Positions 2,411-57,225 of a DNA stretch of 64,000 nt are shown piece after piece. The notes under the pieces are model-generated. The model worked only from the letters and a program-made list of their open reading frames with translations. It had not been told where the DNA came from and did no database searches. The translations under genes and the position numbers were made by a program. The DNA is taken from contig CBDUTJ010000006.1 in assembly GCA_965370415.1 (NCBI GenBank), positions 28,496 through 92,495 on the forward strand, given 5' to 3'. Within the stretch, counting starts at the first letter, position 1. Every line of letters begins with the position of its first letter. The DNA is from an uncultured bacterium (GTDB lineage Bacteria; Cloacimonadota; Cloacimonadia; Cloacimonadales; TCS61).

Positions 2411-3226
2411 ATGGAAAATATATTAAAAAAACTCAAACATCAAAATGGCGAACCGGTTGAAATTAAAATAAAAGGAAAGATAATCAGCAGAGATCATTTT
2501 ACCTTTATTGCCGGACCCTGCACAATAGAAAATTATGATGATCTGCTGAAAATTGTTAAGCATCTTCAGAAAATGGGAATTAATTTCTTCCGGGGCGGTG
2601 CTTACAAAATGCGTACTTCACCTTATAATTTTAAAGGGCTGGGAAAGACCGGACTGGAATTTATAAAAAAAGTTGCGCACGAAACCGGTATGATATCTGT
2701 TTCTGAAATAGTCGCTGAAGAAGACGTAGATGAAATGAGTGAATACGTGGACATTTTGCAGGTGGGAACGCGTAACATGCACAATTATCGGCTGCTCTGG
2801 AAACTGGGAAAAGTGAACAACCCCATCATTTTAAAGCGTGGTATGAGCAGCACTATCGAAGAATGGCTGCTGGCAGCAGAACATGTCATCGAAGCTGGAA
2901 ATCCGAAAGTAATATTATGTGAGCGCGGCATCCGCACTTTTGAAAATTTTACACGTCATACACTGGATATTTCTGCTATTCCCGCTGTGAAAAGCTTGAG
3001 CAACCTGCCCGTCATCGTCGATCCATCCCACAGTTCGGGACGTCGTGAAATGATAAAATCACTAAGTTGGGCTGCCATGGCTGCGGGCGCAGATGGACTT
3101 CTCATCGAGACGCATTTCTCACCGGATAGTACAGTGTGCGATAGCGAGCAGACAATAGATTTTGAGATCTTAGCGAAAATATTGGAGAAAAAAGAAGAAC
3201 TGCTTGGATTGTGGGGAAAAAAGTAG
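2411..3226 (+). CDS. 3-deoxy-7-phosphoheptulonate (DAHP) synthase, class I-beta type
   Basis: Motifs IAGPCTIE, FRGGAYKMRTSPY.FKGLG, LQVGTRNM, LKRG, CERGIRTF and DPSHSSGRR. Confidence 0.85.
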   Translation: MENILKKLKHQNGEPVEIKIKGKIISRDHFTFIAGPCTIENYDDLLKIVKHLQKMGINFFRGGAYKMRTSPYNFKGLGKTGLEFIKKVAHETGMISVSEIVAEEDVDEMSEYVDILQVGTRNMHNYRLLWKLGKVNNPIILKRGMSSTIEEWLLAAEHVIEAGNPKVILCERGIRTFENFTRHTLDISAIPAVKSLSNLPVIVDPSHSSGRREMIKSLSWAAMAAGADGLLIETHFSPDSTVCDSEQTIDFEILAKILEKKEELLGLWGKK

Positions 3227-3302
3227 GATTTTCATTTCGACTCGAAAGTGAAGCGTCGAGTCGAGAAATGATAACATATCTTTTCTTCTCAAGTCGTCGT
3301 AC
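3227..3302. repeat. ~75-bp intergenic repeat, copy 1 (GATTTTCATTTCGACTCGAAAGTGAAGCGTCGAGTCGAGAAATGATAACA...TTCTTCTCAAGTCGTCGTAC) with internal hairpin 3237-3264
   Basis: Aligns by eye with 6912-6988, with about 8 mismatches. The TCGACTCG/CGAGTCGA stem was read directly. Confidence 0.8.
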
Positions 3303-4545: not shown

Positions 4546-4588
4546 ATTCATCTCCTTTTAACATATACATAATAAGACAATATTTTTT

Positions 4589-6607
4589 TTATGGTAAAGT
4601 ATTTCCATCTGAGTCCGTCTTAATTAACCAGACATCACTTCCACCATTCCCGAAAGAGTATGTATAACCTGTAATGATATATCCACCATCTGTTGTCTGT
4701 TGAACGGAAGAACCCGAATCAGTCTCATTTCCACCGAATGTTTGATTCCACACTTCATTCCCATTTGAATCAGTCTTGATTAACCAGATATCAAAAGAGC
4801 CATTTCCGAAAGAGTGTGTATAACCTGTAATAATATATCCACCATCTATTGTCTGTTGAACGGAATTACCAACATCACCACTAGTCCCACCAAATGTCTG
4901 ATTCCATTCTTCATTTCCATTTGAATCAGTCTTGATTAACAAAATATCTCCACTACTTCCGTAAAACGATATAACACCTATAATGATATAACCACCATCT
5001 ATTGTCTGTTGAACGGAATTACAAAAATCACTATCACTTCCACCAAAGGTCTGATTCCATTCTTCATTTCCATTTGAATCAGTCTTGATTAGAAAGAAAT
5101 CATGAATACCATTACCGAAAGAGCTTGTATAGCCAGTAATGATATATCCATCATCTGTTGTCTGTTGAACGGAATTACCAACATCTACACCAGTTCCACC
5201 ATGTGTTTGATTCCATTCTTCATTTCCATTTAAATCAGTCTTAATTAACCAGACATCAGAATAACCATTCCCGAAAGAGTATGTTCTCCCTGTAATTATA
5301 TATCCACCATCTATTGTCTGTTGAACGGAATAACCACTATCATCACTACCTCCACCGAATGTTTGATCCCATTCTTCATTTCCGTTTTGATCAAACTTAA
5401 TCAACCAGACATCTTCACCGTTCCCGGAAGAGTATTTATAACCTGTAATGATATATCCACCATCTGTGGTCTGTTGAACGGAATACCCTTTAGCCTCACT
5501 ATTCCAACCAAAATTATGATTCCATTCTTCATTTCCGTTTTGATCAGTTTTTATCAACCAGACATTTTTCTCATCAATCCCGAATGATATATAACCTGTA
5601 ATTATATATCCACCATCTGTGGTTTGATCAACGGAATTTCCTCCATCATTACTACTTCCACCAAATGTTTTCATAAACCAGTCATGTGAATCACCTAATT
5701 GAATATTACTATAAGATTGTAATCCCCATACATCCTCAATAACTACTTGATAATATCTTACTACATTTTCAACAATTCCTGTAACAATATAACTTGTTTC
5801 AGTATTATCGGTGGTTATAAATATTTCAGTTTGATTACTCATATCAGGCAAATCAGATTCATATAGAGTATAGGATTCAAAATCATCATCATCGTTTTGA
5901 GACCAAGAAATATAAAATGAGTTATTGTCATAAATAATTTGATATATTTCAACAGATATAGGATTATCATCTAAAATATAATAACCACTTCCAGTAGTTG
6001 AAAATCCTACTGAATCTGTAACGTTTACCCAATACCACCTCGGTTGTAATGGATTAAAATCAGTAATTACACAAATAGTATCATTTATCTCACTAACTTC
6101 AGTGATCAAAGATTTTTCTCCGTCTTCAGTTTCCGAAATTAATAGTTCATAGAAGTCAAAATCATTGTCTGTGGATTTGTTCCAAATAATTGTCATTTCA
6201 AGTAGAGTATAATCAATTGAAATAATATTGATTGGTTGAGGATATGATCCAGAATTATCAACCATTAAAGTGATTGCATTACTGTCAGTCACATTATTAC
6301 TTTCATCGTATGCTCTAGCTCTTAAAGTGTGATATGATCCATTTTCCAAAGTTGTGGTATCCCAAATTAAAATATACGGCTCAATTTCATCTATTATATT
6401 TGTTGCTTCTCCATTAACCCATAATTCAATTTTTTTTATTCCTATATTATCTGAGGCAATACAATTAATAATTACGATTTCGAAAGCTATTGAACCAGTT
6501 TGAGGATTAGTAATTGTAACTGTAGGTGGAATTGTATCCGGACTGGTTTGTTTTTCACATGATATTATAAATATAAAAACAATAATAAAGAAAATAAAAT
6601 GTTTCAT
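4589..6607 (-). CDS. Surface lipoprotein: Ig-like domain + two FN3-like modules + seven ~52-aa tandem repeats (beta-propeller-like)
   Basis: Start moved to MKHFIFF... (6607), which has an AGGAGGA RBS and the lipobox IISC. Seven units of [40 protein letters not shown]. Confidence 0.8.
4592..5665 (-). repeat. Seven in-frame tandem coding repeats of ~153-156 bp
   Basis: For example, CCACCATCTATTGTCTGTTGAACGGAAT recurs at 4839 and 4992, which is 153 bp apart. Units counted from the translation are 51, 51, 52, 52, 51, 52 and 49 aa. Confidence 0.85.
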
Positions 6608-6805
6608 AAATCCTCCTTTTCGTTTAATGATGTATCCTTTATTATAAAATTCCATCATCGAATTTACCAGTATATTTTACTTTTTTCAATATCACATTTT
6701 GCCTTGAAATTTACTTGAGTGAAAATGAGAAAATCAAAGCTAAGTGTCAAATAGAAAATAATTAAATGTTGTGAAATAAAGGAGAGAGGTATAAAAACTG
6801 AATAC

Positions 6806-6905
6806 CGTTCCCAAAGATGGCTTTGGGAACGAGTACTGAGGTTATTTCTTCTCGAGTCGTCGTGCATGATATTAATCACCGTTCCCAAAAAGAGCTTTGG
6901 AAACG
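6806..6905. repeat. Two REP-like hairpins of the GTTCCCAA..TTGGGAAC family (6806-6832, 6880-6905) plus a partial copy of the 75-bp repeat tail (6846-6865)
   Basis: CGTTCCCAAAGATGGCTTTGGGAACG and CGTTCCCAAAAAGAGCTTTGGAAACG were read directly. Confidence 0.8.
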
Positions 6906-6911
6906 AGGTCA

Positions 6912-6997
6912 GATTTTCATTTCGACTCGAAAGTGAAGCGTTGAGTCGAGTAATGATAACAAACTCTCTTCTCGAGTCGTCGTGCTTTACGACTCGA
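6912..6997. repeat. ~75-bp intergenic repeat, copy 2, plus a second hairpin TCGAGTCGT-N8-ACGACTCGA (6972-6997) abutting the psuG stop
   Basis: Aligns with 3227-3302 in the same orientation. Confidence 0.8.
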
Positions 6998-10365: not shown

Positions 10366-11137
10366 TTTCTTTAAAATGCATGCCCAGGGGAACGATTATA
10401 TTTACTTTGATTTTACCGAAACTGAAATGCCTAAAATTGATTTTTCCAAATTAGCTATTAAGCTTTCTCAAAGGCACTTTGGTGTTGGTTCCGATGGGAT
10501 CGTGCTGATACTTAAGGATGATGACAGCGAAGCTTTTATGAAAATATTTAATGCTGATGGTTCCGAAGGAAAAATGTGTGGTTCTGCTCTTATGTGTGTT
10601 TCATCTTACCTGGGAAAAAAGTTAGCTAAGAAAACATTGAATATCGACACCATTTCCGGTATAAGGACCGGGTTAATACTCGATGAAAAATTCAATGAAG
10701 TCAAGATCAATCTGAGCTCCCCCGAGATCATTTCCAAAGAACCACTTACTGTAGAGAATTTCTCCGGTTACCTGGTGCAGATCGGAAATAAGCATTTCGT
10801 TACTTTTATAAACAATCTTTCGGCTGACATGGCTGCAAAATTCGGTCCGTTCATTGAAAATAACAAATCCTTTCCTGATGGGATAAATGTGGAATTTGTT
10901 AAGATCAAGTCAAAAAACTCTATTGAATTGAGCGTCTGGGAACGAGGTAGCGGAGCAACTCTTTCCTGCGGCAGCGGTGCCTGTGCTTCTGTGTATGCCG
11001 GTATTACGTATGATCTTCTTTCCAATACCGTAAAAGTGAAATTACCCGGTGGTGAAGTATTCGTGGAATATGAGAATGGAGAAATATTCCTGACAGGTAT
11101 TGTTTCTTTTGTGTTTACAGGAACAGTGGAGATATGA
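10349..11137 (+). CDS. dapF: Diaminopimelate epimerase
   Basis: F.KMHA.GNDY plus the two catalytic-Cys motifs MCGSA and SCGSGACA. Confidence 0.85.
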   Translation: MNMKLDFFKMHAQGNDYIYFDFTETEMPKIDFSKLAIKLSQRHFGVGSDGIVLILKDDDSEAFMKIFNADGSEGKMCGSALMCVSSYLGKKLAKKTLNIDTISGIRTGLILDEKFNEVKINLSSPEIISKEPLTVENFSGYLVQIGNKHFVTFINNLSADMAAKFGPFIENNKSFPDGINVEFVKIKSKNSIELSVWERGSGATLSCGSGACASVYAGITYDLLSNTVKVKLPGGEVFVEYENGEIFLTGIVSFVFTGTVEI

Positions 11138-15939: not shown

Positions 15940-15996
15940 TTTAAATCCTCCCTTTTGTCCCGGCGTAGCCTTGGCGAAGCCGGATTGTTTTTTTTT

Positions 15997-16024
15997 GTAA
16001 GGGCAACTCGTGAGTTGCCCTTAC
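15997..16024. repeat. REP-like hairpin GTAAGGGCAACT-CGTG-AGTTGCCCTTAC (12-bp stem)
   Basis: Read directly, preceded by T9. A partial relative (CAACTCGTAAGTTG) lies at 14913-14926. Confidence 0.8.
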
Positions 16025-16034
16025 ACGCTGATAT

Positions 16035-16620: not shown

Positions 16621-16743
16621 GGCAAAGCTGAGCTTTGCGTTCAATTACGTTCCCAAGTGCAACTTGGGAACGAGTTAAAAAACTCACTCTCCATACATCT
16701 TAATTGTGTGAAAAAAAGCGTTCCCACGCAGAGCATGGGAACG
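16621..16743. repeat. REP cluster: GCAAAGCTGAGCTTTGC (16622-16638), CGTTCCCAAGTGCAACTTGGGAACG (16648-16672), CGTTCCCACGCAGAGCATGGGAACG (16719-16743)
   Basis: Read directly. Both GTTCCCA hairpins are followed by AGTTAA. Confidence 0.8.
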
Positions 16744-16760
16744 AGTTAATATTATATTTT

Positions 16761-25346: not shown

Positions 25347-25409
25347 CAAGCATCCTGGCTGAAAAATATTGTTAATCTTCACGAGGGAACACTGTGTATC
25401 TGGTTATGA
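25347..25409 (+). pseudogene. Relic of a histidine-kinase 3' end (..LKNIVNLHEGTLCIWL*)
   Basis: 25362-25391 matches phoR 24488-24519 (KHIVNLHKGTI) at about 25 of 32 nt by eye. No upstream kinase ORF is attached. Confidence 0.4.
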
Positions 25410-25429
25410 AACCGGAGTTTCGTAACCAG
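25400..25429. repeat. REP-like hairpin CTGGTTATGAAAC-CGGA-GTTTCGTAACCAG
   Basis: Read directly; 13-bp stem with one G-U/mismatch position. Confidence 0.7.
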
Positions 25430-25486
25430 CAGAAACGAGATTCATTATGAAATTACCAAAGTTAATTTAATAATGAAGGAGTTTAT

Positions 25487-42708: not shown

Positions 42709-43890
42709 TTAAATAATTCCAACTGCTTTACCGATCTTTTCAAATTTTTCCAGGGCTTCATCGAGCTGCTTCCTGGTGTGAGTAGCCATAAAGCTGGTGC
42801 GGATAAGTGTGTCATTTGGAGGAACGGCTGGCGGAACAACCGGATTTATAAAAACACCTTCATCATCGAGTTGTTTCCACATTTTAAAGGCATTCATCAT
42901 ATCTCCCACGTGAAGCGGTATAACCGGTGTACAGGAAGTTCCTGTATTATATCCCATAGCTTTAAAATTTTCCATCATATAATGTGTATTTTCCCAGAGT
43001 TTATCTATGCGTTCCGGTTCTTCTTTCATGATCTTCATTGCTTCTAATACTGTGGCAGCAGAAGCTGGTGGCAGTGATGCGCTGAAAATTAACGAACGGG
43101 CATGATGTTTGAGGAAATGTATAACCTCTTTGCTGCCGGCGATAAATCCACCCACAGAAGCCAACGATTTACTGAAAGTTCCCATAATTAATTCAACATC
43201 ATCTGTGCAGCCAAAATGCATGGCAGCGCCTGCACCCGTTTTGTGCAGAACTCCCAACGAATGTGCTTCGTCCACCATTACACTGGCACCATGTTTCTTT
43301 GCCAGTTTGCAGATATTAGGAACATCCGCAATGTCACCTTCCATACTGAAAATTCCATCAACAACTATCAGAGCACCTTTCCCTGCCACTTTGTTCTTCA
43401 GAACCGTATCGAGATGTTTCATATTATTATGATTGAATCGTACCATTTTTCCCTGGGAAAGCATACAGCCATCCAGAATTGAAGCATGATCGAATTTATC
43501 AGTAACGATATATTCTCCCTTATCCACCATAGCAGAGATGGCACCCAAATTTGCCATATAACCTGCAGCAAAAGCCAGCGAAGCTTCCTTGCCAACCAGT
43601 TTGGCCAGTTTATCCTCAAGCTCTATATGAATGTCCAGAGTTCCGTTCAGGAAGCGGGAACCGGCACAACCAGTGCCATATTTATCGGTTGCCTTTTTGG
43701 CAGCTTCTATTACGCGCGGATGATTGGTGAGACCCAGGTAGCTGTTCGAGCCCATCATCAACATACGTTTACCATTACAGCTTACTTCGGTATCCTGTTC
43801 AGAATCTATAATCCTGAAATACGGATAATGACCCAAAGCCATAATTTCTTTAGCAAGGGTAAATCCTTTAACTTTATCGAGTAAACTCAT
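42709..43890 (-). CDS. Alpha-oxoamine synthase family PLP enzyme (2-amino-3-ketobutyrate CoA ligase / AONS / SPT-like)
   Basis: GSNSYLGL, GSRFLNGT, VDEAHS.G and GTFSKSLAS.GGF with the PLP lysine. Substrate not resolvable by eye. Confidence 0.75.
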   Translation of the reverse strand: MSLLDKVKGFTLAKEIMALGHYPYFRIIDSEQDTEVSCNGKRMLMMGSNSYLGLTNHPRVIEAAKKATDKYGTGCAGSRFLNGTLDIHIELEDKLAKLVGKEASLAFAAGYMANLGAISAMVDKGEYIVTDKFDHASILDGCMLSQGKMVRFNHNNMKHLDTVLKNKVAGKGALIVVDGIFSMEGDIADVPNICKLAKKHGASVMVDEAHSLGVLHKTGAGAAMHFGCTDDVELIMGTFSKSLASVGGFIAGSKEVIHFLKHHARSLIFSASLPPASAATVLEAMKIMKEEPERIDKLWENTHYMMENFKAMGYNTGTSCTPVIPLHVGDMMNAFKMWKQLDDEGVFINPVVPPAVPPNDTLIRTSFMATHTRKQLDEALEKFEKIGKAVGII

Positions 43891-43968
43891 TTAACCTTCT
43901 TTAAATATTTTATTTAAAATTCAAAAGCAGATTTTCAATATACACTGTCAACAAAATAAAGTTTTTGA

Positions 43969-44086
43969 CTCTCATTACGAAGCTTCCGCTTCGTAATGCA
44001 CTAACTTTAGAAGCTGCCGCTTCCATAGTGCGAAGTAAAAACTTCGCAGGTTATTGCATTCCCAACTGGAAAGTTGGGAATGAGAG
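43969..44086. repeat. Composite REP element copy 1: four hairpins (43973-43998, 44010-44023, 44030-44047, 44057-44082) bounded by CTCTCATT / AATGAGAG
   Basis: All stems read directly: CATTACGAAGC-TTCC-GCTTCGTAATG; GAAGC-TGCC-GCTTC; GCGAAGT-AAAA-ACTTCGC; CATTCCCAACT-GGAA-AGTTGGGAATG. Confidence 0.85.
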
Positions 44087-44091
44087 AAAGT

Positions 44092-46638
44092 TTATTTCAT
44101 CAATAGCATTTTGCGGGTAAAAGTATTATCTCCTGCGATCAACTTGTAAAAATAAACTCCGCTGGAAACCGGTTTTCCGGAATCATCAGTACCGTCCCAT
44201 AATATTTCTCTCGCCCCTCCCGATAAATCGGGATTTGGGAACGTATCAAAAACTTTTACTTTCTGTCCCTTCAAATTATAAATGACAAGTTTTGCGTTCA
44301 CAGCATCCTCTGCGGTTAAAGATAATGAAATAGTTGTTGTTGGATTGAAAGGATTAGGATAATTCCCCAAAAGTTTTGTCTCCAGAGTTAAAATATTATC
44401 CGCTGATACAAATAAGATTTCAAATTCTATCGGATTGGATTCAAATAAGTATTCATAAAAAGCTGTAAGCCCTACTAAGTAGGTTTGACCACTAATAAGA
44501 TCATATATATCATAGGAAAGTTCAGTCGTTTCTTCCAGTAACTCTCCATTCAGGTAAATCCTGTAATTCAGAAATGGAAATGTACTTCCCGGTTCAGGTT
44601 CCTGCCAGGTTAGATGAATATGGTCATCCATTATTTCATAGGAAGCATTTGTAGGAGGATAACATATATATCCCCAACCATCATCAATAATTATTTCTGA
44701 TTCACCTTCTTCATAAACGGCAGAAACTCCGGTAATGTATTGCTGTCCAGGTGTAAGATTGGTATATTGATATTCAAATACATCTATACCAACTGTAGCT
44801 AAAGGAAATGTCATATCATCCAGGTATACGTTATAACCAATTAATGTTGCATTTGAATATTCCGGAGGTTCCCAGAAAATAATCCACATAAAAGGATTTA
44901 ATACAACGTTTGTTGGTGGATTGAGTGGATGAGGACATATAAATTCTGCCCCAACTAATTCAGATGAGCCAGCTTCGTAATTTGCACATACTTCAGCTAA
45001 GTAATTTTGCCCGTATACTAAATCAGTAAATATCCAAGTCTGCTCATTTGTAGCTGCCACATGACATCCATCTAAAAAAACACAATAATGTCCAAGAGGA
45101 TCAGGAGGTGATGTACTTCCCGGCTCTGGTGGATCCCATGTAAATATAGCACAGTTATTATCAATTGTAACTTCAGGATTCTGCGGTGGATTGAGGATGT
45201 GAGGAATATAAATTGTTGTATCAATTATTGCAGATTCATAAGCTCCCTCATAAACATAACTAACTCCATAAGTATATTCACCCAGAAAAATAAACGGGAT
45301 AAAAATTAATGGACTAGTTATTAAGCATCCTATAAGTACACCGTTTTCATAAAGATTCCATCCAATAATAAACAATGGTAATGTAGGATATGCAATTCCA
45401 GTTGGACCTAAGATTAACACAGAGTTTCCACTTACTGATACCAAAAATGATGTAGGTGGTGCATAAGGCGACAATGTCGGTTCATAATCCACAATTCCAT
45501 AAGCAGGATTATCGTTACCGTCAATTATAGAAACATTGATAGGTGGATCGGTATCCCAAACAGTATTTTCAGCTTTCACATCCATGGCACTGGCGTTGTA
45601 AACGCTATATTCCTCGCCTGTATAAAAAATATTATCATAAATGCAATTATAACCATCATCGTCTGTGCTGGTGTTTTCCAGATCGCCCAGATTGGCTGTG
45701 GCATCAGAAGCAAGATAAAAACCTGTATAATTTCCGGTAACCTCATTGTAAGTGAATGTGCCATCTGCTCCGCTTCCATAAAGCATTACACCTGCACCGG
45801 AATCTGGATTATTTTCCATAAAATTATGATGAATGTGATTATGCGCATAATAACCTTTTGCATTGTATAAATAGATGCCGGTATAATTATATGAAATTAT
45901 ATTGTTCTCCACGGTGGGAGCCATCTCATTATAATTGAACAAATTACCCATCGTAATGCCCTGCTTGCCGTTGTGATGAATATAAGAATTGGAAATGGTA
46001 GGGCTACAATCGTGGGCACTGTTTTGTAATGCAAGCTGGATGGCAGCATAAAATTGAGCTCCCAGTCCACATTGTGTAACTTCGCAGGAATCCACCAGCA
46101 CATTGGAATTATCTGTGATCAATATTCCATTTTTCTCACAATAAGCAACTTTGGAATTCTTAATTTCCATTAAGGATGGTGTAGTTCCGGTCAAAGCAGA
46201 AAAGTGCACTCCTTTTTGGTGGTCATCTATGTATGAATGATTAATCAAAACCAGACTATTTATGGAATAAATTCCATAATCATTCGTATCATTAGTGTTG
46301 GAAATGCGGCAGTGAATGAATTCACTTTGCACGGTTTCGTTTTCCAGGCGAATTCCTCCCCAGTTCAATCCATTATTCCCATGAAACCGGATCGAGTCGT
46401 TTTGGGTACCAATAGACAGAATATTTCCCAATGCTGTGATCCTGTAATTTCCCATAGCAATTACTTCTACGCCTGCTTGTATTTCCAGGGTTTCACCAGC
46501 AGGAACGGTGATTTCTCCTATCATATTGTAGGGATTATTATCGGGTGACCAGATACCCGATTGGTTACCGGATACATCAATTGCGATGAGAGAAATGGTG
46601 AAAAGTGTTAATATAGAACTAATTAATATTTTTTTCAT
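44092..46638 (-). CDS. Secreted parallel-beta-helix + 3x FN3-like protein with a T9SS-type / FlgD-Ig-like C-terminal sorting domain
   Basis: Signal peptide. Repeated N/G-rich beta-helix turns. FN3-like W.PPEPGST modules. C-terminal NYPNPFNP...IYNLKGQKV...WDGTDDSGKPVSSGVYFYKL. Confidence 0.8.
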   Translation of the reverse strand: MKKILISSILTLFTISLIAIDVSGNQSGIWSPDNNPYNMIGEITVPAGETLEIQAGVEVIAMGNYRITALGNILSIGTQNDSIRFHGNNGLNWGGIRLENETVQSEFIHCRISNTNDTNDYGIYSINSLVLINHSYIDDHQKGVHFSALTGTTPSLMEIKNSKVAYCEKNGILITDNSNVLVDSCEVTQCGLGAQFYAAIQLALQNSAHDCSPTISNSYIHHNGKQGITMGNLFNYNEMAPTVENNIISYNYTGIYLYNAKGYYAHNHIHHNFMENNPDSGAGVMLYGSGADGTFTYNEVTGNYTGFYLASDATANLGDLENTSTDDDGYNCIYDNIFYTGEEYSVYNASAMDVKAENTVWDTDPPINVSIIDGNDNPAYGIVDYEPTLSPYAPPTSFLVSVSGNSVLILGPTGIAYPTLPLFIIGWNLYENGVLIGCLITSPLIFIPFIFLGEYTYGVSYVYEGAYESAIIDTTIYIPHILNPPQNPEVTIDNNCAIFTWDPPEPGSTSPPDPLGHYCVFLDGCHVAATNEQTWIFTDLVYGQNYLAEVCANYEAGSSELVGAEFICPHPLNPPTNVVLNPFMWIIFWEPPEYSNATLIGYNVYLDDMTFPLATVGIDVFEYQYTNLTPGQQYITGVSAVYEEGESEIIIDDGWGYICYPPTNASYEIMDDHIHLTWQEPEPGSTFPFLNYRIYLNGELLEETTELSYDIYDLISGQTYLVGLTAFYEYLFESNPIEFEILFVSADNILTLETKLLGNYPNPFNPTTTISLSLTAEDAVNAKLVIYNLKGQKVKVFDTFPNPDLSGGAREILWDGTDDSGKPVSSGVYFYKLIAGDNTFTRKMLLMK

Positions 46639-46656
46639 TTTTTCTCCTTTTTAACT

Positions 46657-46776
46657 CTCTCATTACGAAGCTTCTGCTTCGTAATGCATTTACCCCGGAA
46701 GCCTCTGATTCCATATAGATGCGAAGTAAAAACTTCGCACATTATTGCATTCCCAACTAGAAAGTTGGGAATGAGA
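46657..46776. repeat. Composite REP element copy 2, same orientation (hairpins 46661-46686, 46697-46712 degenerate, 46721-46738, 46748-46773)
   Basis: About 85% identical to copy 1 by eye. Begins CTCTCATT and ends AATGAGA. Confidence 0.85.
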
Positions 46777-46810
46777 AAAAAATACTGAACCGATACCTAC
46801 AAATCAATCT

Positions 46811-46862
46811 GTTTCCGAACTTTCCAGTTCGGAAACCAATAACATTAGAAGCTTCTGCTTCT
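46811..46862. repeat. REP hairpins GTTTCCGAACT-TTCC-AGTTCGGAAAC (46811-46836) and AGAAGC-TTCT-GCTTCT (46847-46862)
   Basis: Read directly. The second hairpin ends 2 nt from the RAYT stop codon. Confidence 0.85.
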
Positions 46863-47440
46863 CTCAAATCTCAATCCTATCTAGCTCGATAATTATCGAA
46901 TCATCCCAACCTTTGTTATTAGCTGAACTATATTTCCAATCCTCGGGATTGTTGACAAAACCACGTTTCACTGGATTATAGTGTAAATATTCTACTTTTT
47001 GTGCAAGCATTTTATTAGAAGATATCAACTGAGGATGAAAACCTTCCTGCCAGATTTGATAATTAGTAATTTTATGTTTCTTTTTATAAAACTTCATTAA
47101 ATCATATTTCCATTTATAATTATCATTCTTCAATTCATCAAGTATCCTATCTGCTGTATATCCCTTCAAAGAGCGCATTACATCAGACAATTTTGGATGA
47201 GATACGATCAAATGAAAATGATTATCCATAATTACATAATAAAACAACTTTAAAGCTTTTTCTGTTTTACAAAAATTCAGAGAATCAATAATTATTCTAA
47301 AATATTTTTCAGAGGTGAAGATAGGAATCCATTCGATAATTGTAGCGCTTACAAAATAAATTCCATTTGATTCAACAACTTTGTAACTACTTCTCATAAT
47401 TGTTCTCTCAAAGCCTCTCTCATTACGAAGCTTCCGCTTC
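46847..47440 (-). mobile_element. RAYT gene with flanking GAAGCTTCYGCTTC hairpins
   Basis: Hairpins at 46847-46862 and 47427-47440 share the core and orientation and bracket the ORF. Confidence 0.6.
46864..47397 (-). CDS. REP-associated tyrosine transposase (RAYT; IS200/IS605-type Y1 HUH transposase fold)
   Basis: HUH motif MDNHFHLIV and tyrosine motif VEYLHYNPVKRGFV. 177 aa, flanked on both sides by REP hairpins, with no TnpB-like partner. Confidence 0.8.
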   Translation of the reverse strand: MRSSYKVVESNGIYFVSATIIEWIPIFTSEKYFRIIIDSLNFCKTEKALKLFYYVIMDNHFHLIVSHPKLSDVMRSLKGYTADRILDELKNDNYKWKYDLMKFYKKKHKITNYQIWQEGFHPQLISSNKMLAQKVEYLHYNPVKRGFVNNPEDWKYSSANNKGWDDSIIIELDRIEI

Positions 47441-47501
47441 CTCTTTAAGGCGAAGTAGAAACTTCGCGTTTTATCTTCTTCCCAAGCAGAAGCTTAGGAA
47501 G
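47417..47501. repeat. Truncated/divergent composite REP copy 3 (CTCTCATTACGAAGCTTCCGCTTC.., GCGAAGT-AGAA-ACTTCGC at 47450-47467, CTTCCCAAGC-AGAA-GCTTAGGAAG at 47478-47501)
   Basis: Read directly. The first hairpin lacks its GTAATG arm. Confidence 0.75.
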
Positions 47502-47549
47502 GAGGATTTATTACTTTCACAAATAAAATTGGGAAAAAGTGAAATTCAG

Positions 47550-48179
47550 TCAAATAATATTTCTCCTCTTCTTCACATAATTACTAACAATCACATACGC
47601 TAAAGCAACAGCAGCAATTATAGCTCCCAGCCATTTGAGTGAAGTTAAAAAACTTACTACAACTCCTGCGATAAGAACACCAAAGAAAATGAATAGAATG
47701 GATTTCCAAAAGCTGAGCCCGAGAAGATAGGCAGCCAAAGAACCTGTCCAGGCTCCGGTTATGGGAAGTGGAATAGCCACAAAAAACATTAAACCGATCT
47801 CTTCATATTTTTCTATAACAGCGCTTTTACTTCTCGTTCTGCGGAAAATGGCTTCTAATAATTTCTTCAGGAAAGGTACTTTAAAGAATAATTTGGTAAT
47901 AAGATCGAAGAAAAGCAGGATAAAGAAAATGGGTATCATATTCCCGGCAATGGCAATAGGAAAAACCTTCCAGAGGGGAAGTTTATATGATAAAATTCCA
48001 ATTGGAATAGCCCCCCGCAATTCAAATATCGGGATCATGGCAATGAGGAAAACTTTCACTTCGGAAGATACATTTATCCGTTCGATCTTTGTTTGCAGTG
48101 TTTCTTTAAATCCCGATGCTGCGAGCAGAGATGCCGTTAAAGCTATGAGCAATAAGATCATCAGCATTTTAACCTTCAT
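47550..48179 (-). CDS. Small multidrug-export-like membrane protein (COG2426-type)
   Basis: IPIFELRGAIPIG motif and 5-6 TM segments. GGAGAGGAAGGG RBS supports the MKVKM start at 48179, giving an 11-nt overlap with pcm. Confidence 0.6.
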   Translation of the reverse strand: MKVKMLMILLLIALTASLLAASGFKETLQTKIERINVSSEVKVFLIAMIPIFELRGAIPIGILSYKLPLWKVFPIAIAGNMIPIFFILLFFDLITKLFFKVPFLKKLLEAIFRRTRSKSAVIEKYEEIGLMFFVAIPLPITGAWTGSLAAYLLGLSFWKSILFIFFGVLIAGVVVSFLTSLKWLGAIIAAVALAYVIVSNYVKKRRNII

Positions 48180-55698: not shown

Positions 55699-55717
55699 TA
55701 ACGCAAGGATGTATCTA

Positions 55718-55743
55718 AAAGCCCCGTATTCGGGGCTTTTATT
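55718..55743 (+). terminator. Rho-independent terminator AAAGCCCCG-TATT-CGGGGCTTT + TATT
   Basis: 9-bp stem and T-rich tail, 20 nt after the stop. Confidence 0.8.
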
Positions 55744-55753
55744 GTATACGTAA

Positions 55754-55793
55754 CTCGACCAGCTTGGTCGAGAGAGCGACCTAGCAGATCGCT
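55754..55793. repeat. REP hairpins CTCGACCAGCTTGGTCGAG (55754-55772) and AGCGACCTAGCAGATCGCT (55775-55793)
   Basis: Read directly, abutting the radA stop codon. Confidence 0.8.
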
Positions 55794-57152: not shown

Positions 57153-57225
57153 AAGCGAGCAGCTTGCTCGCTTAATCTCGACCAAGCTGGTTGTTATTTT
57201 CTTTTCCTCGACCAGGCTGGTCGAG
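57153..57225. repeat. REP cluster AAGCGAGC-AGCTT-GCTCGCTT (57153-57173), degenerate CTCGACCAAGCTGGTTG (57177-57193), CTCGACCAGGCTGGTCGAG (57207-57225)
   Basis: Read directly. The last hairpin lies inside the 3' end of the ribF ORF. Confidence 0.8.

Follow-up and report, generated by a model that had tools for sequence, protein, structure and literature searches.

Among the closest described relatives of the system that we report here is that of Escherichia coli TnpA-REP (YafM), the enzyme of a REPtron, in which the gene for a REP-associated tyrosine transposase (RAYT) is bracketed by repetitive extragenic palindromes (REPs). On single-stranded DNA (ssDNA), TnpA-REP binds the REP in its folded state together with the 5' foot, then cleaves and rejoins it, and the TnpA of the insertion sequence (IS) IS608 does likewise with its subterminal hairpins (PMC6006769, which summarizes the E. 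coli REPtron work of Ton-Hoang 2012 and Messing 2012). Residues W94, Q95, E100, H101 and R104 of the E. coli enzyme have been reported as contacts to the GTAG foot. According to Quentin et al. (2018), REPs are species-specific, with a canonical 5' foot GT[AG]G in subclasses 2.2, 2.4, 2.5, 2.7 and 2.8 and atypical structures in subclasses 2.6 and 3. CGTC-tagged REPs have been found in five phyla and were judged to be without a dedicated transposase (Di Nocera et al. 2013, PMC3733652), while in Neisseria the REP doublets (REPINs) of ATTCCCGCGCAGGCGGGAATC type, whose repeats are equivalent to CGTC-1/dRS3, were tied to a Group 2 RAYT, the REPIN association being restricted to Groups 2 and 3 (Bertels et al., bioRxiv 10.1101/2021.07.10.451892). 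In this work, we examine a RAYT gene and its hairpins in a stretch of 64,000 nucleotides from an uncultured bacterium of the Cloacimonadota (GenBank assembly GCA_965370415.1, contig CBDUTJ010000006.1, positions 28,496 to 92,495 of the forward strand), which will be called the window.

We consider it probable that this locus is a REPtron, that is, a single-copy and vertically inherited RAYT (TnpA-REP) bracketed by its cognate REP hairpins. The hairpins were scored with a covariance model (R1) made from 76 sequences, none of which comes from the window, and the model was run over the window with its filters off. The gene and its immediate flanks are composed as follows.

46864..47397, minus strand: RAYT / TnpA-REP gene, 177 aa; the HUH motif (two histidines around one other residue) is H60-F-H62 and the catalytic tyrosine Y137
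46847..46862, minus strand: mini-hairpin next to the gene at the right end; in gene sense AGAAGC-AGAA-GCTTCT; 1 nt past the stop
46807..46840, minus strand: right-end REP on the gene strand, GTTTCCGAACT-GGAA-AGTTCGGAAAC, stem 46811-46836, ~28 nt past the stop; R1 30.5 bits, E 1e-7
47473..47506, plus strand: left-end REP, upstream of the gene and on the opposite strand; R1 31.3 bits

The original prediction had read the 177-aa open reading frame (ORF) as a RAYT with HUH and tyrosine motifs, and this stands. Both motifs are present (...VIMDNHFHLIV... and ...VEYLHYNPVKRGFV...), the Y1_Tnp (PF01797) search that had been proposed as a check gives 29.1 bits against a cut-off of 23, and the NCBIfam equivalog REP_Tyr_transpos (NF047646) gives 111.3 bits for a cut-off of 80, while the IS200 model NF033573 stays at 25.8 bits, under its cut-off of 55. 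With phmmer, the sole relative of solved structure found by sequence is E. coli TnpA-REP (4ER8), with which the HUH region, the Y-x-x-x-NPVK-G motif and also the W-Q motif align. An alignment of 32 homologues has no variation at H60, Y137, W116-Q117-E118, H121-P122, N141-P142-V143 or G146, and hardly any at H62. An AlphaFold (AF2) model computed from this alignment (mean pLDDT 88) has 4ER8 as its top match in the PDB (TM 0.62/0.66, 18% structure-based identity), followed by the transposases of ISDra2, IS200 and IS608. We can thus identify the gene as a RAYT from a curated model, a predicted fold and catalytic motifs, and at the gene level it is already nameable and belongs to an ordinary family; annotation pipelines already give such proteins the name RayT. 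A library of 1.84 billion representatives contains 50 clusters that match the protein at E<=1e-30 and 1,267 at E<=1e-10.

The cognate REP has a perfect stem of 10-11 bp without bulge, a loop of 3-4 nt and asymmetric single-stranded flanks, and in gene sense it reads 5'-(R)TGC-[G/A]TT[C/A]C[C/G]AAnn-NGGA/RGAA-nnTT[G/C]G[G/T]AA[C/T]-GAG-3'. Between each REP and the gene there is one mini-hairpin of 5-7 bp that repeats the top of the REP. It is two of these small hairpins that had been predicted to flank the gene, in a direct orientation that departs from the usual picture: AGAAGC-TTCT-GCTTCT at 46847-46862, one base from the RAYT stop, and GAAGC-TTCC-GCTTC at 47427-47440, 29 nt from the start. 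Both are found at these positions, but they are 5-6-bp accessory mini-hairpins and not REPs. The mini-hairpins fit R1 over its apical part only (model positions 11-24 for the one at 46847-46862, which has a counterpart at the same place in other RAYT loci). The direct orientation has to be abandoned because it was read from mini-hairpins instead of full REPs: the REPs at 47473-47506 (+) and 46807-46840 (-) form an inverted pair around the gene, in the usual REPtron layout.

The core GAAGCTTCYGCTTC, which had been noted to recur at 43979 and 46667, does so: with at most one mismatch it is found five times in the window (43979, 44010, 46667, 46848 and 47427), where 0.03 copies are expected by chance, and none of 100 shuffles gave five. 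It is the apex common to one outer hairpin and one mini-hairpin. All five copies lie within 43979-47440, i.e., within 3.5 kb of the gene, so that the idea of hairpins littering the window is right for the wider REP family, which occupies seven spacers, and wrong for this word.

The REPs also occur near the gene as doublets, which we will call composites.

43969..44086, unstranded: composite doublet E1, just 3' of the gene for a type IX secretion system (T9SS) protein; four hairpins, fold z = -10; REP 43969-44002 (-), mini-hairpins 44010-44023 and 44029-44048, REP 44053-44086 (+); R1 48.5 / 39.8 bits
46657..46780, unstranded: composite doublet E2; four hairpins, fold z = -8.2; REP 46657-46690 (-), mini-hairpins 46697-46712 and 46720-46739, REP 46744-46777 (+); R1 50.9 / 41.2 bits
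47417..47509, unstranded: degenerate composite E3, upstream of the gene, a deleted version of E1/E2; truncated REP/mini-hairpin fusion 47417-47441 (which includes 47427-47440), mini-hairpin 47450-47467, REP 47473-47506 (+)

E1, E2 and E3 align with one another. The full element, in gene sense, consists of CTC-ATTCCCAACT-TTCY-AGTTGGGAAT-GCA, a mini-hairpin TGCGAAGT-TTTT-ACTTCGCA, a second mini-hairpin GGAAGC-nnnn-GCTTCY, and (A/G)TGC-ATTACGAAGC-RGAA-GCTTCGTAAT-GAGAG. The two outer hairpins are one motif in opposite orientations, and as ssDNA the composites fold into four separate hairpins (z -8 to -10); in E1, the termini TCTCATT / AATGAGA pair as well, over no more than 7-8 nt. The order in E1 and E2 is left REP, mini-hairpin, mini-hairpin, right REP, which means that these ~120-nt elements are both ends of the gene unit without the gene, and they are analogous to REPINs and bacterial interspersed mosaic elements (BIMEs) or to the miniature inverted-repeat transposable elements (MITEs) of IS200/IS605. 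As in REPINs and BIMEs, an inverted pair of REPs less than ~130 nt apart is repeated (E1, E2, the degenerate E3, and in tandem in the relative L006). E1 is missing from the orthologous spacer of the relatives L006 and L009, and is seen only in the lineage of the window. In L006, whose RAYT is 79% identical, the spacer downstream of the gene (10535-11122, 589 nt) contains three or more composites in tandem, along with a run of Ns at an assembly gap. The copy number of REPINs in spacers adjacent to the RAYT thus changes between species, and the repeats break assemblies.

In Cloacimonadota units with both flanks (the window, L138 and L139), a TTCCCA-type REP precedes the gene and a TTACGA-type REP follows it; L006 and L009 show a TTCCCA-type REP upstream and L137 a TTACGA-type REP downstream, on one side each. 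In most other phyla the TTCCCA type stands at both ends of the unit. What distinguishes these subtypes are paired substitutions in the stem, at positions 3 and 5 (A-T to C-G, G-C to C-G), and therefore a single enzyme appears to tolerate both.

The same arrangement recurs well beyond the Cloacimonadota. When metagenomes were scanned with the family alignment, 565 relatives were obtained among 600 stretches, and the best 80 loci (39-77% identity, 242 kb) were used; R1 gives 243 matches in them. Among these best 80 of 565, 51 of 76 loci have a REP of the strict pattern at most 300 nt upstream of the gene, and 54 of 79 have one at most 300 nt downstream. As in the inverted layout of the window, the REP closest to the gene is nearly always on the opposite strand when upstream (34:2, median 47 nt) and on the gene strand when downstream (41:4, median 31 nt). 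REP density is 3.3/kb within 300 nt of the RAYT and 0.24/kb beyond, a 14-fold difference, and it is 0 within the gene. The aligned loci read CCTCG-REP-CGCA, ~8 nt, mini-hairpin, ~20 nt, ATG...stop, mini-hairpin, ~8 nt, (AAG)TGC-G-REP-CGAG, and the layout REP, mini-hairpin, RAYT, mini-hairpin, REP is seen in about 85 loci of other phyla. In 29 of 42 loci, the downstream mini-hairpin and its neighbouring REP have the same three apical pairs (9.1 expected, maximum 18 in 10,000 permutations, a p-value that is optimistic since the loci are related). There are seven REP apex types, and the matching loci include AGC, CGC, AAC, GGC, AGT and AAT.

A scan for the exact pattern TTACGAAGC-N4-GCTTCGTAA, with one genome per species, gave at least 118 stretches and at least 135 hairpins, the REP copy numbers per genome being lower bounds. 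According to the record titles, the hosts among the matches listed are Cloacimonadota, Ignavibacteria, Planctomycetaceae, Bacteroidota, Gracilimonas (including the isolate DSM 21985), Campylobacterota (Sulfurovum, Nitratifractor), Desulfobacterota, Gammaproteobacteria, Calditrichia and others; no contig recognisable as part of the window's own genome is among them. A few matches in Firmicutes (L037, L061, L099, L111), with flanks of A-runs and T-runs, are probably unrelated terminators. The consensus of 133 flank-oriented copies from outside the window is T-G-C-[G/A]-TT[A/C]C[G/C]AAGC-N-G-G-A-GCTT[C/G]G[T/G]AA-C-GAG, with a foot T(0.56)-G(0.64)-C(0.84) and a 3' tail GAG. An eleventh pair, on which the selection placed no demand, is retained in 65/76, with the Watson-Crick types GC, AU, CG and UA and 3/65 G·U wobbles. 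By tblastn, RAYT homologues adjoin the hairpin in Cloacimonadota (L075, L084), Ignavibacteria (L029) and Gracilimonas (L122, L079), and the homologues P0070 (Planctomycetota), P0061 (KSB1), P0107 (Bacteroidota) and P0093 (Nitrospinota) are flanked by the motif on either side, in most cases as CGTTCCCAAGC-loop-GCTTGGGAACG. The Bacteroidota genome of P0107 also holds many exact-pattern matches. In the Planctomycetota, the P0070 gene (53% identical, at least 24 contigs) and two inverted REPs are located between the genes for the V-type ATPase subunits A and B (L130/L131 2929-3687), within what is normally one operon.

Within the window, R1 finds 12 sites in seven spacers, six around the gene and six in four other spacers. 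All 12 are intergenic, in the ~10% of the window that is so, and lie between co-directional genes; the strict REP pattern has 8 sites for 0.005 expected. More generally, the intergenic DNA of the window contains clusters of perfect hairpins (stem 11 bp, loop 4 nt), and what is dispersed there is the wider family of TTCCCAA / TTACGAA hairpins. The REPs away from the gene are the following.

6802..6909, plus strand: two dispersed REPs in direct orientation, 6802-6835 (34.1 bits) and 6876-6909 (15.3 bits, E 0.013); intergenic
16622..16747, plus strand: right-end-like module and a second REP; mini-hairpin 16622-16638, REP 16644-16676 (32.6 bits), REP 16715-16747 (23.3 bits)
25398..25431, plus strand: dispersed REP, GGTTATGAAAC-CGGA-GTTTCGTAACC; 23.6 bits
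30507..30540, minus strand: dispersed REP of TTCCCACGC type; 28.2 bits

The gene had been proposed to drive the intergenic hairpin families of the window, and this holds in part: REPs of its own family are present in other spacers, whereas a family built on CGACTCGA (at 3214-3302 and 6847-6997) is separate from them. A RAYT embedded in cognate REPs, with hairpins of the family in other spacers, fits a REP-generating role. Scans of the window with Rfam (at gathering thresholds) and for tRNA and tmRNA gave no matches, and the empty Rfam scan rules out a known RNA family for the hairpin clusters. Ordinary intrinsic terminators were rejected as well, as a terminator pattern scan of 43800-47700 gave 3 sites for 2.3 expected.

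The genomic position of the gene is relevant to its mode of inheritance. Five metagenome contigs encode an identical protein, each with the gene order SurE, PCMT, DedA-like, RAYT, T9SS beta-helix protein, aminotransferase. In the window, its neighbours are the DedA-like membrane protein and the T9SS beta-helix protein; a TnpB partner, looked for beside the RAYT, is not among these neighbours, as had been predicted. The orthologues P0002 (79% identity) and P0015 (72%) are at the same position between the same genes, and the source names of the close homologues are Candidatus Cloacimonadota. The proposed check of copy number gave one copy in the 64-kb window and one locus across the five assemblies, a count that covers, for the RAYT as for the REPs, the window and metagenome contigs. 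Against four orthologues, the RAYT has a nonsynonymous divergence (dN) of 0.14-0.18, with synonymous sites near saturation and dN/dS of 0.04-0.09. Because of this single syntenic locus and this low dN/dS, the sequence data point to a long-resident gene under purifying selection, and not to a recently multiplying IS.

A first alternative is nonetheless that of an ordinary autonomous IS of the IS200/IS605 type, in which REP plus mini-hairpin would be the ends and the composites would be MITE derivatives resembling palindrome-associated transposable elements (PATE-like). Such an IS would account for ends at fixed distances from the gene in ~85 loci, for a unit present in unrelated contexts in different phyla and for composites made of a left and a right end without the gene, and its TnpA would have the fold common to the IS608 and ISDra2 enzymes. 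Like the elements of this family (IS608, ISDra2, IS200), the Cloacimonadota RAYT has a Y1 HUH fold and is predicted to recognise subterminal hairpins on ssDNA, and the paired hairpins upstream of it recall the stem-loops of IS200, which are a terminator and a stem-loop occluding the ribosome-binding site (RBS). However, the gene stays at a single locus in five assemblies, with synteny kept between species that have reached saturation at synonymous sites; it has no second copy within the 64 kb and no TnpB, and the protein is under the cut-off of the IS200 model and over that of the RAYT model. Moreover, its end hairpins are inverted, whereas those of IS608 and ISDra2 are both on the same strand. 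We therefore regard an ordinary IS as unlikely.

In a second alternative, the RAYT would be a domesticated ssDNA nuclease with a host function, for which the REPs are fixed binding or processing sites, copying having ended, and perhaps serve to insulate or stabilise RNA. Here the strong purifying selection and the fixed locus would be expected, all REPs lie between co-directional genes and hence would be transcribed, and the conservation of the REP across phyla suggests a constraint beyond selfish spread. But E1 is specific to one lineage and the number of REPINs differs between orthologous spacers, both of which are signs of turnover, and terminator-like sites are at background; such a domesticated nuclease seems improbable to us on these grounds. 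Lastly, that the hairpins are generic terminators or structural palindromes close to the gene by coincidence is a very remote explanation, for although they are intergenic and the few Firmicutes matches have flanks like those of bidirectional terminators, the 14-fold density around RAYT genes, the stereotyped orientation at fixed distances, the conserved asymmetric flanks and loop, the missing T-run and the terminator scans at background all speak against it.

Several observations weigh against the REPtron that we favour. The unit has stereotyped, tight ends and is found in unrelated contexts in other phyla, such as that of the V-ATPase A and B genes, and these two features show that the whole unit has moved during evolution, which is an IS-like behaviour. 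There are only 12 REPs in the 64 kb. Of the residues that contact the foot in E. coli, W94 and Q95 are kept in the Cloacimonadota protein and E100, H101 and R104 are not; the 5' GTAG foot of the E. coli REP is replaced by a (R)TGC foot together with a 3' GAG tail, and the canonical GT[AG]G is absent from the consensus of the 133 copies from outside the window. Finally, E1 and E2 do not fold into one long hairpin, which such doublets cannot form because their left (TTCCCA) and right (TTACGA) REPs differ in subtype.

For a REPtron, in turn, speaks the likeness to E. coli TnpA-REP in the HUH/Y1 fold, the aligned motifs, the inverted flanking REPs, the nearby doublets and the dispersed intergenic REPs. 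The Cloacimonadota unit differs from the E. coli one in the perfect stem of 10-11 bp without bulge, in the extra mini-hairpin between each REP and the gene, and in a REP sequence that is common to several phyla, where E. coli REPs are species-specific. By analogy with E. coli TnpA-REP and IS608 TnpA, the site formed by the HUH motif and Tyr137 would bind the folded REP on ssDNA, recognise it by its foot (TGC), tail (GAG), loop (NGGA/RGAA) and apical pairs, and use H60, H62 and Y137 to cut and rejoin next to the REP; REP singlets and doublets would thereby be copied into intergenic spacers. The mini-hairpin could provide the enzyme with another binding site; the upstream one could instead insulate the gene or occlude its translation, in the manner of IS200. 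It is by this homology that we infer binding, cleavage and present-day mobilisation, and it is most likely that the RAYT copies its hairpins around the genome.

Other described systems resemble this one in part. A BLAST comparison with 13 published RAYTs and terminal-inverted-repeat-associated tyrosine transposases (TIRYTs) gave 17-26% identity to all, values from which no group can be assigned; a placement in Bertels Groups 1-5 or Quentin subclasses 2.1-2.8 was tried and given up at this level of identity. The closest of the 13 are acidobacterial TIRYTs (aba_3477 and tsa_392; Di Nocera 2013, Additional file 5), with 23-26% identity (E 1e-13) and a shared C-terminal NPVKRGLV...PE.W.WSS motif; apart from this low identity, they differ in being flanked by long terminal inverted repeats instead of short REP hairpins. 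Table S1 of Quentin et al. (2018) contains one REP of the present type, that of Desulfatibacillum alkenivorans ACL04004.1 (GTATGCATTCCCACGCAAAGCATGGGAACGAG), under subclass '0/?'. Likened by the REP alone, it is essentially identical to the window REP 16715-16747 in its TGC foot, TTCCCACGC stem, mismatch and CGAG tail. Its RAYT is outside the eight subclasses of Quentin, as a single entry for which neither a clade nor an architecture is described there. The C/A stem mismatch of the window REP (GCGTTCCCACGC-AGA-GCATGGGAACGAG) is the very one of D. alkenivorans, and its conservation between phyla may point to a function, such as that of a bulge which the enzyme recognises.

The CGTC super-family (PMC3733652) has a tag CGTC/TGTC/CCTC, a stem of 8-9 bp that opens with A-T pairs, a loop of 4-5 nt and a CCA tail; back-translated from intragenic peptides, CGTC-1 reads CGTC-ATTCCCGC-GAAA-GCGGGAAT-CCA. 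The window REPs share with the Neisseria/CGTC-1 family the stem base [A/G]TTCCC...GGGAA[T/C], the 4-nt loop, short unpaired tags and tails, a presence in several phyla and inverted doublets, and the window hairpin H4, TCTC-ATTCCCAACT-TTCC-AGTTGGGAAT-GCA, has a (C)CTC tag in one reading. They differ in a stem longer by 2-3 bp (10-11 bp, with AA/AC inserted before the GC apex), in a GCA/GAG tail in place of CCA, and in a loop whose polarity appears opposite. The window REPs may belong to the super-family by their resemblance at the stem base, but tag, tail and loop polarity could not be reconciled.

We advance as a possibility, which we hold at somewhat less than even, that all these loci make up an undescribed RAYT clade with the unit REP, mini-hairpin, gene, mini-hairpin, REP, whose REP (CG-TT[C/A]C[C/G]AAGC-NGGA-...) is conserved over about ten phyla, whose RAYT would be the dedicated enzyme for CGTC-like ATTCCC/GTTCCC palindromes, and whose mini-hairpin, the apex of which changes in step with that of the REP, would be a second recognition element. 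If so, the conservation of the REP across phyla would contradict the view of REPs as species-specific, and the palindromes that Di Nocera et al. (2013) reported without a transposase outside Neisseria would have an enzyme. It appears that this REP type, the twin-hairpin ends and the conservation of both across phyla have no earlier description as such; a full-text literature search for the REP words yielded nothing but unrelated primer sequences. This RAYT lineage is at most 26% identical to the tested reference RAYTs/TIRYTs and yet keeps a near-constant REP and two-hairpin ends, which span Cloacimonadota, Planctomycetota, Nitrospinota, Bacteroidota, Ignavibacteria, Balneolales and Campylobacterota. 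It is thus a candidate enzyme for the widespread palindromes of ATTCCC/GTTCCC type. With a REP of about 34 nt, it offers a compact, sequence-defined substrate for the biochemistry of a non-GTAG RAYT, and at least six apex variants constitute a natural covariation series for mapping what the enzyme reads. The boundary between a 'domesticated' RAYT and a mobile IS is also blurred by a unit that is fixed in Cloacimonadota and yet has clearly moved between phyla.

The window holds other repeats and hairpins. The CGACTCGA family is a second, unrelated family of intergenic repeats and hairpins, to which R1 gives no match in the window: two copies of a 63-nt unit, 87% identical to each other, occupy 3214-3276 and 6899-6961; the word TCTTCTCGAGTCGTCGTRC is repeated at 3284, 6847 and 6967, and there is a hairpin at 6972-6997. 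The RAYT-family REPs at 6802 and 6876 are interleaved with this family, which another enzyme, encoded elsewhere in the genome, may have as its REP. Strong intergenic hairpins unrelated to the REPs are found at 15996-16025, 55716-55741, 55754-55772 and 57207-57225, and examples of them are TGTAAGGGCAACT-CGTG-AGTTGCCCTTACA, the terminator-like TAAAAGCCCCG-TATT-CGGGGCTTTTA, and CTCGACCA-nnn-TGGTCGAG, which occurs twice. The GC skew of the window, at 8-kb resolution, is too noisy for an assignment to the leading or lagging strand. Lastly, seven tandem coding repeats of 153/156 nt, 60-81% identical, are present at 4577-5670 inside a 689-aa ORF (4589-6658, minus strand), the product of which is for this reason predicted to be a repeat-domain protein.

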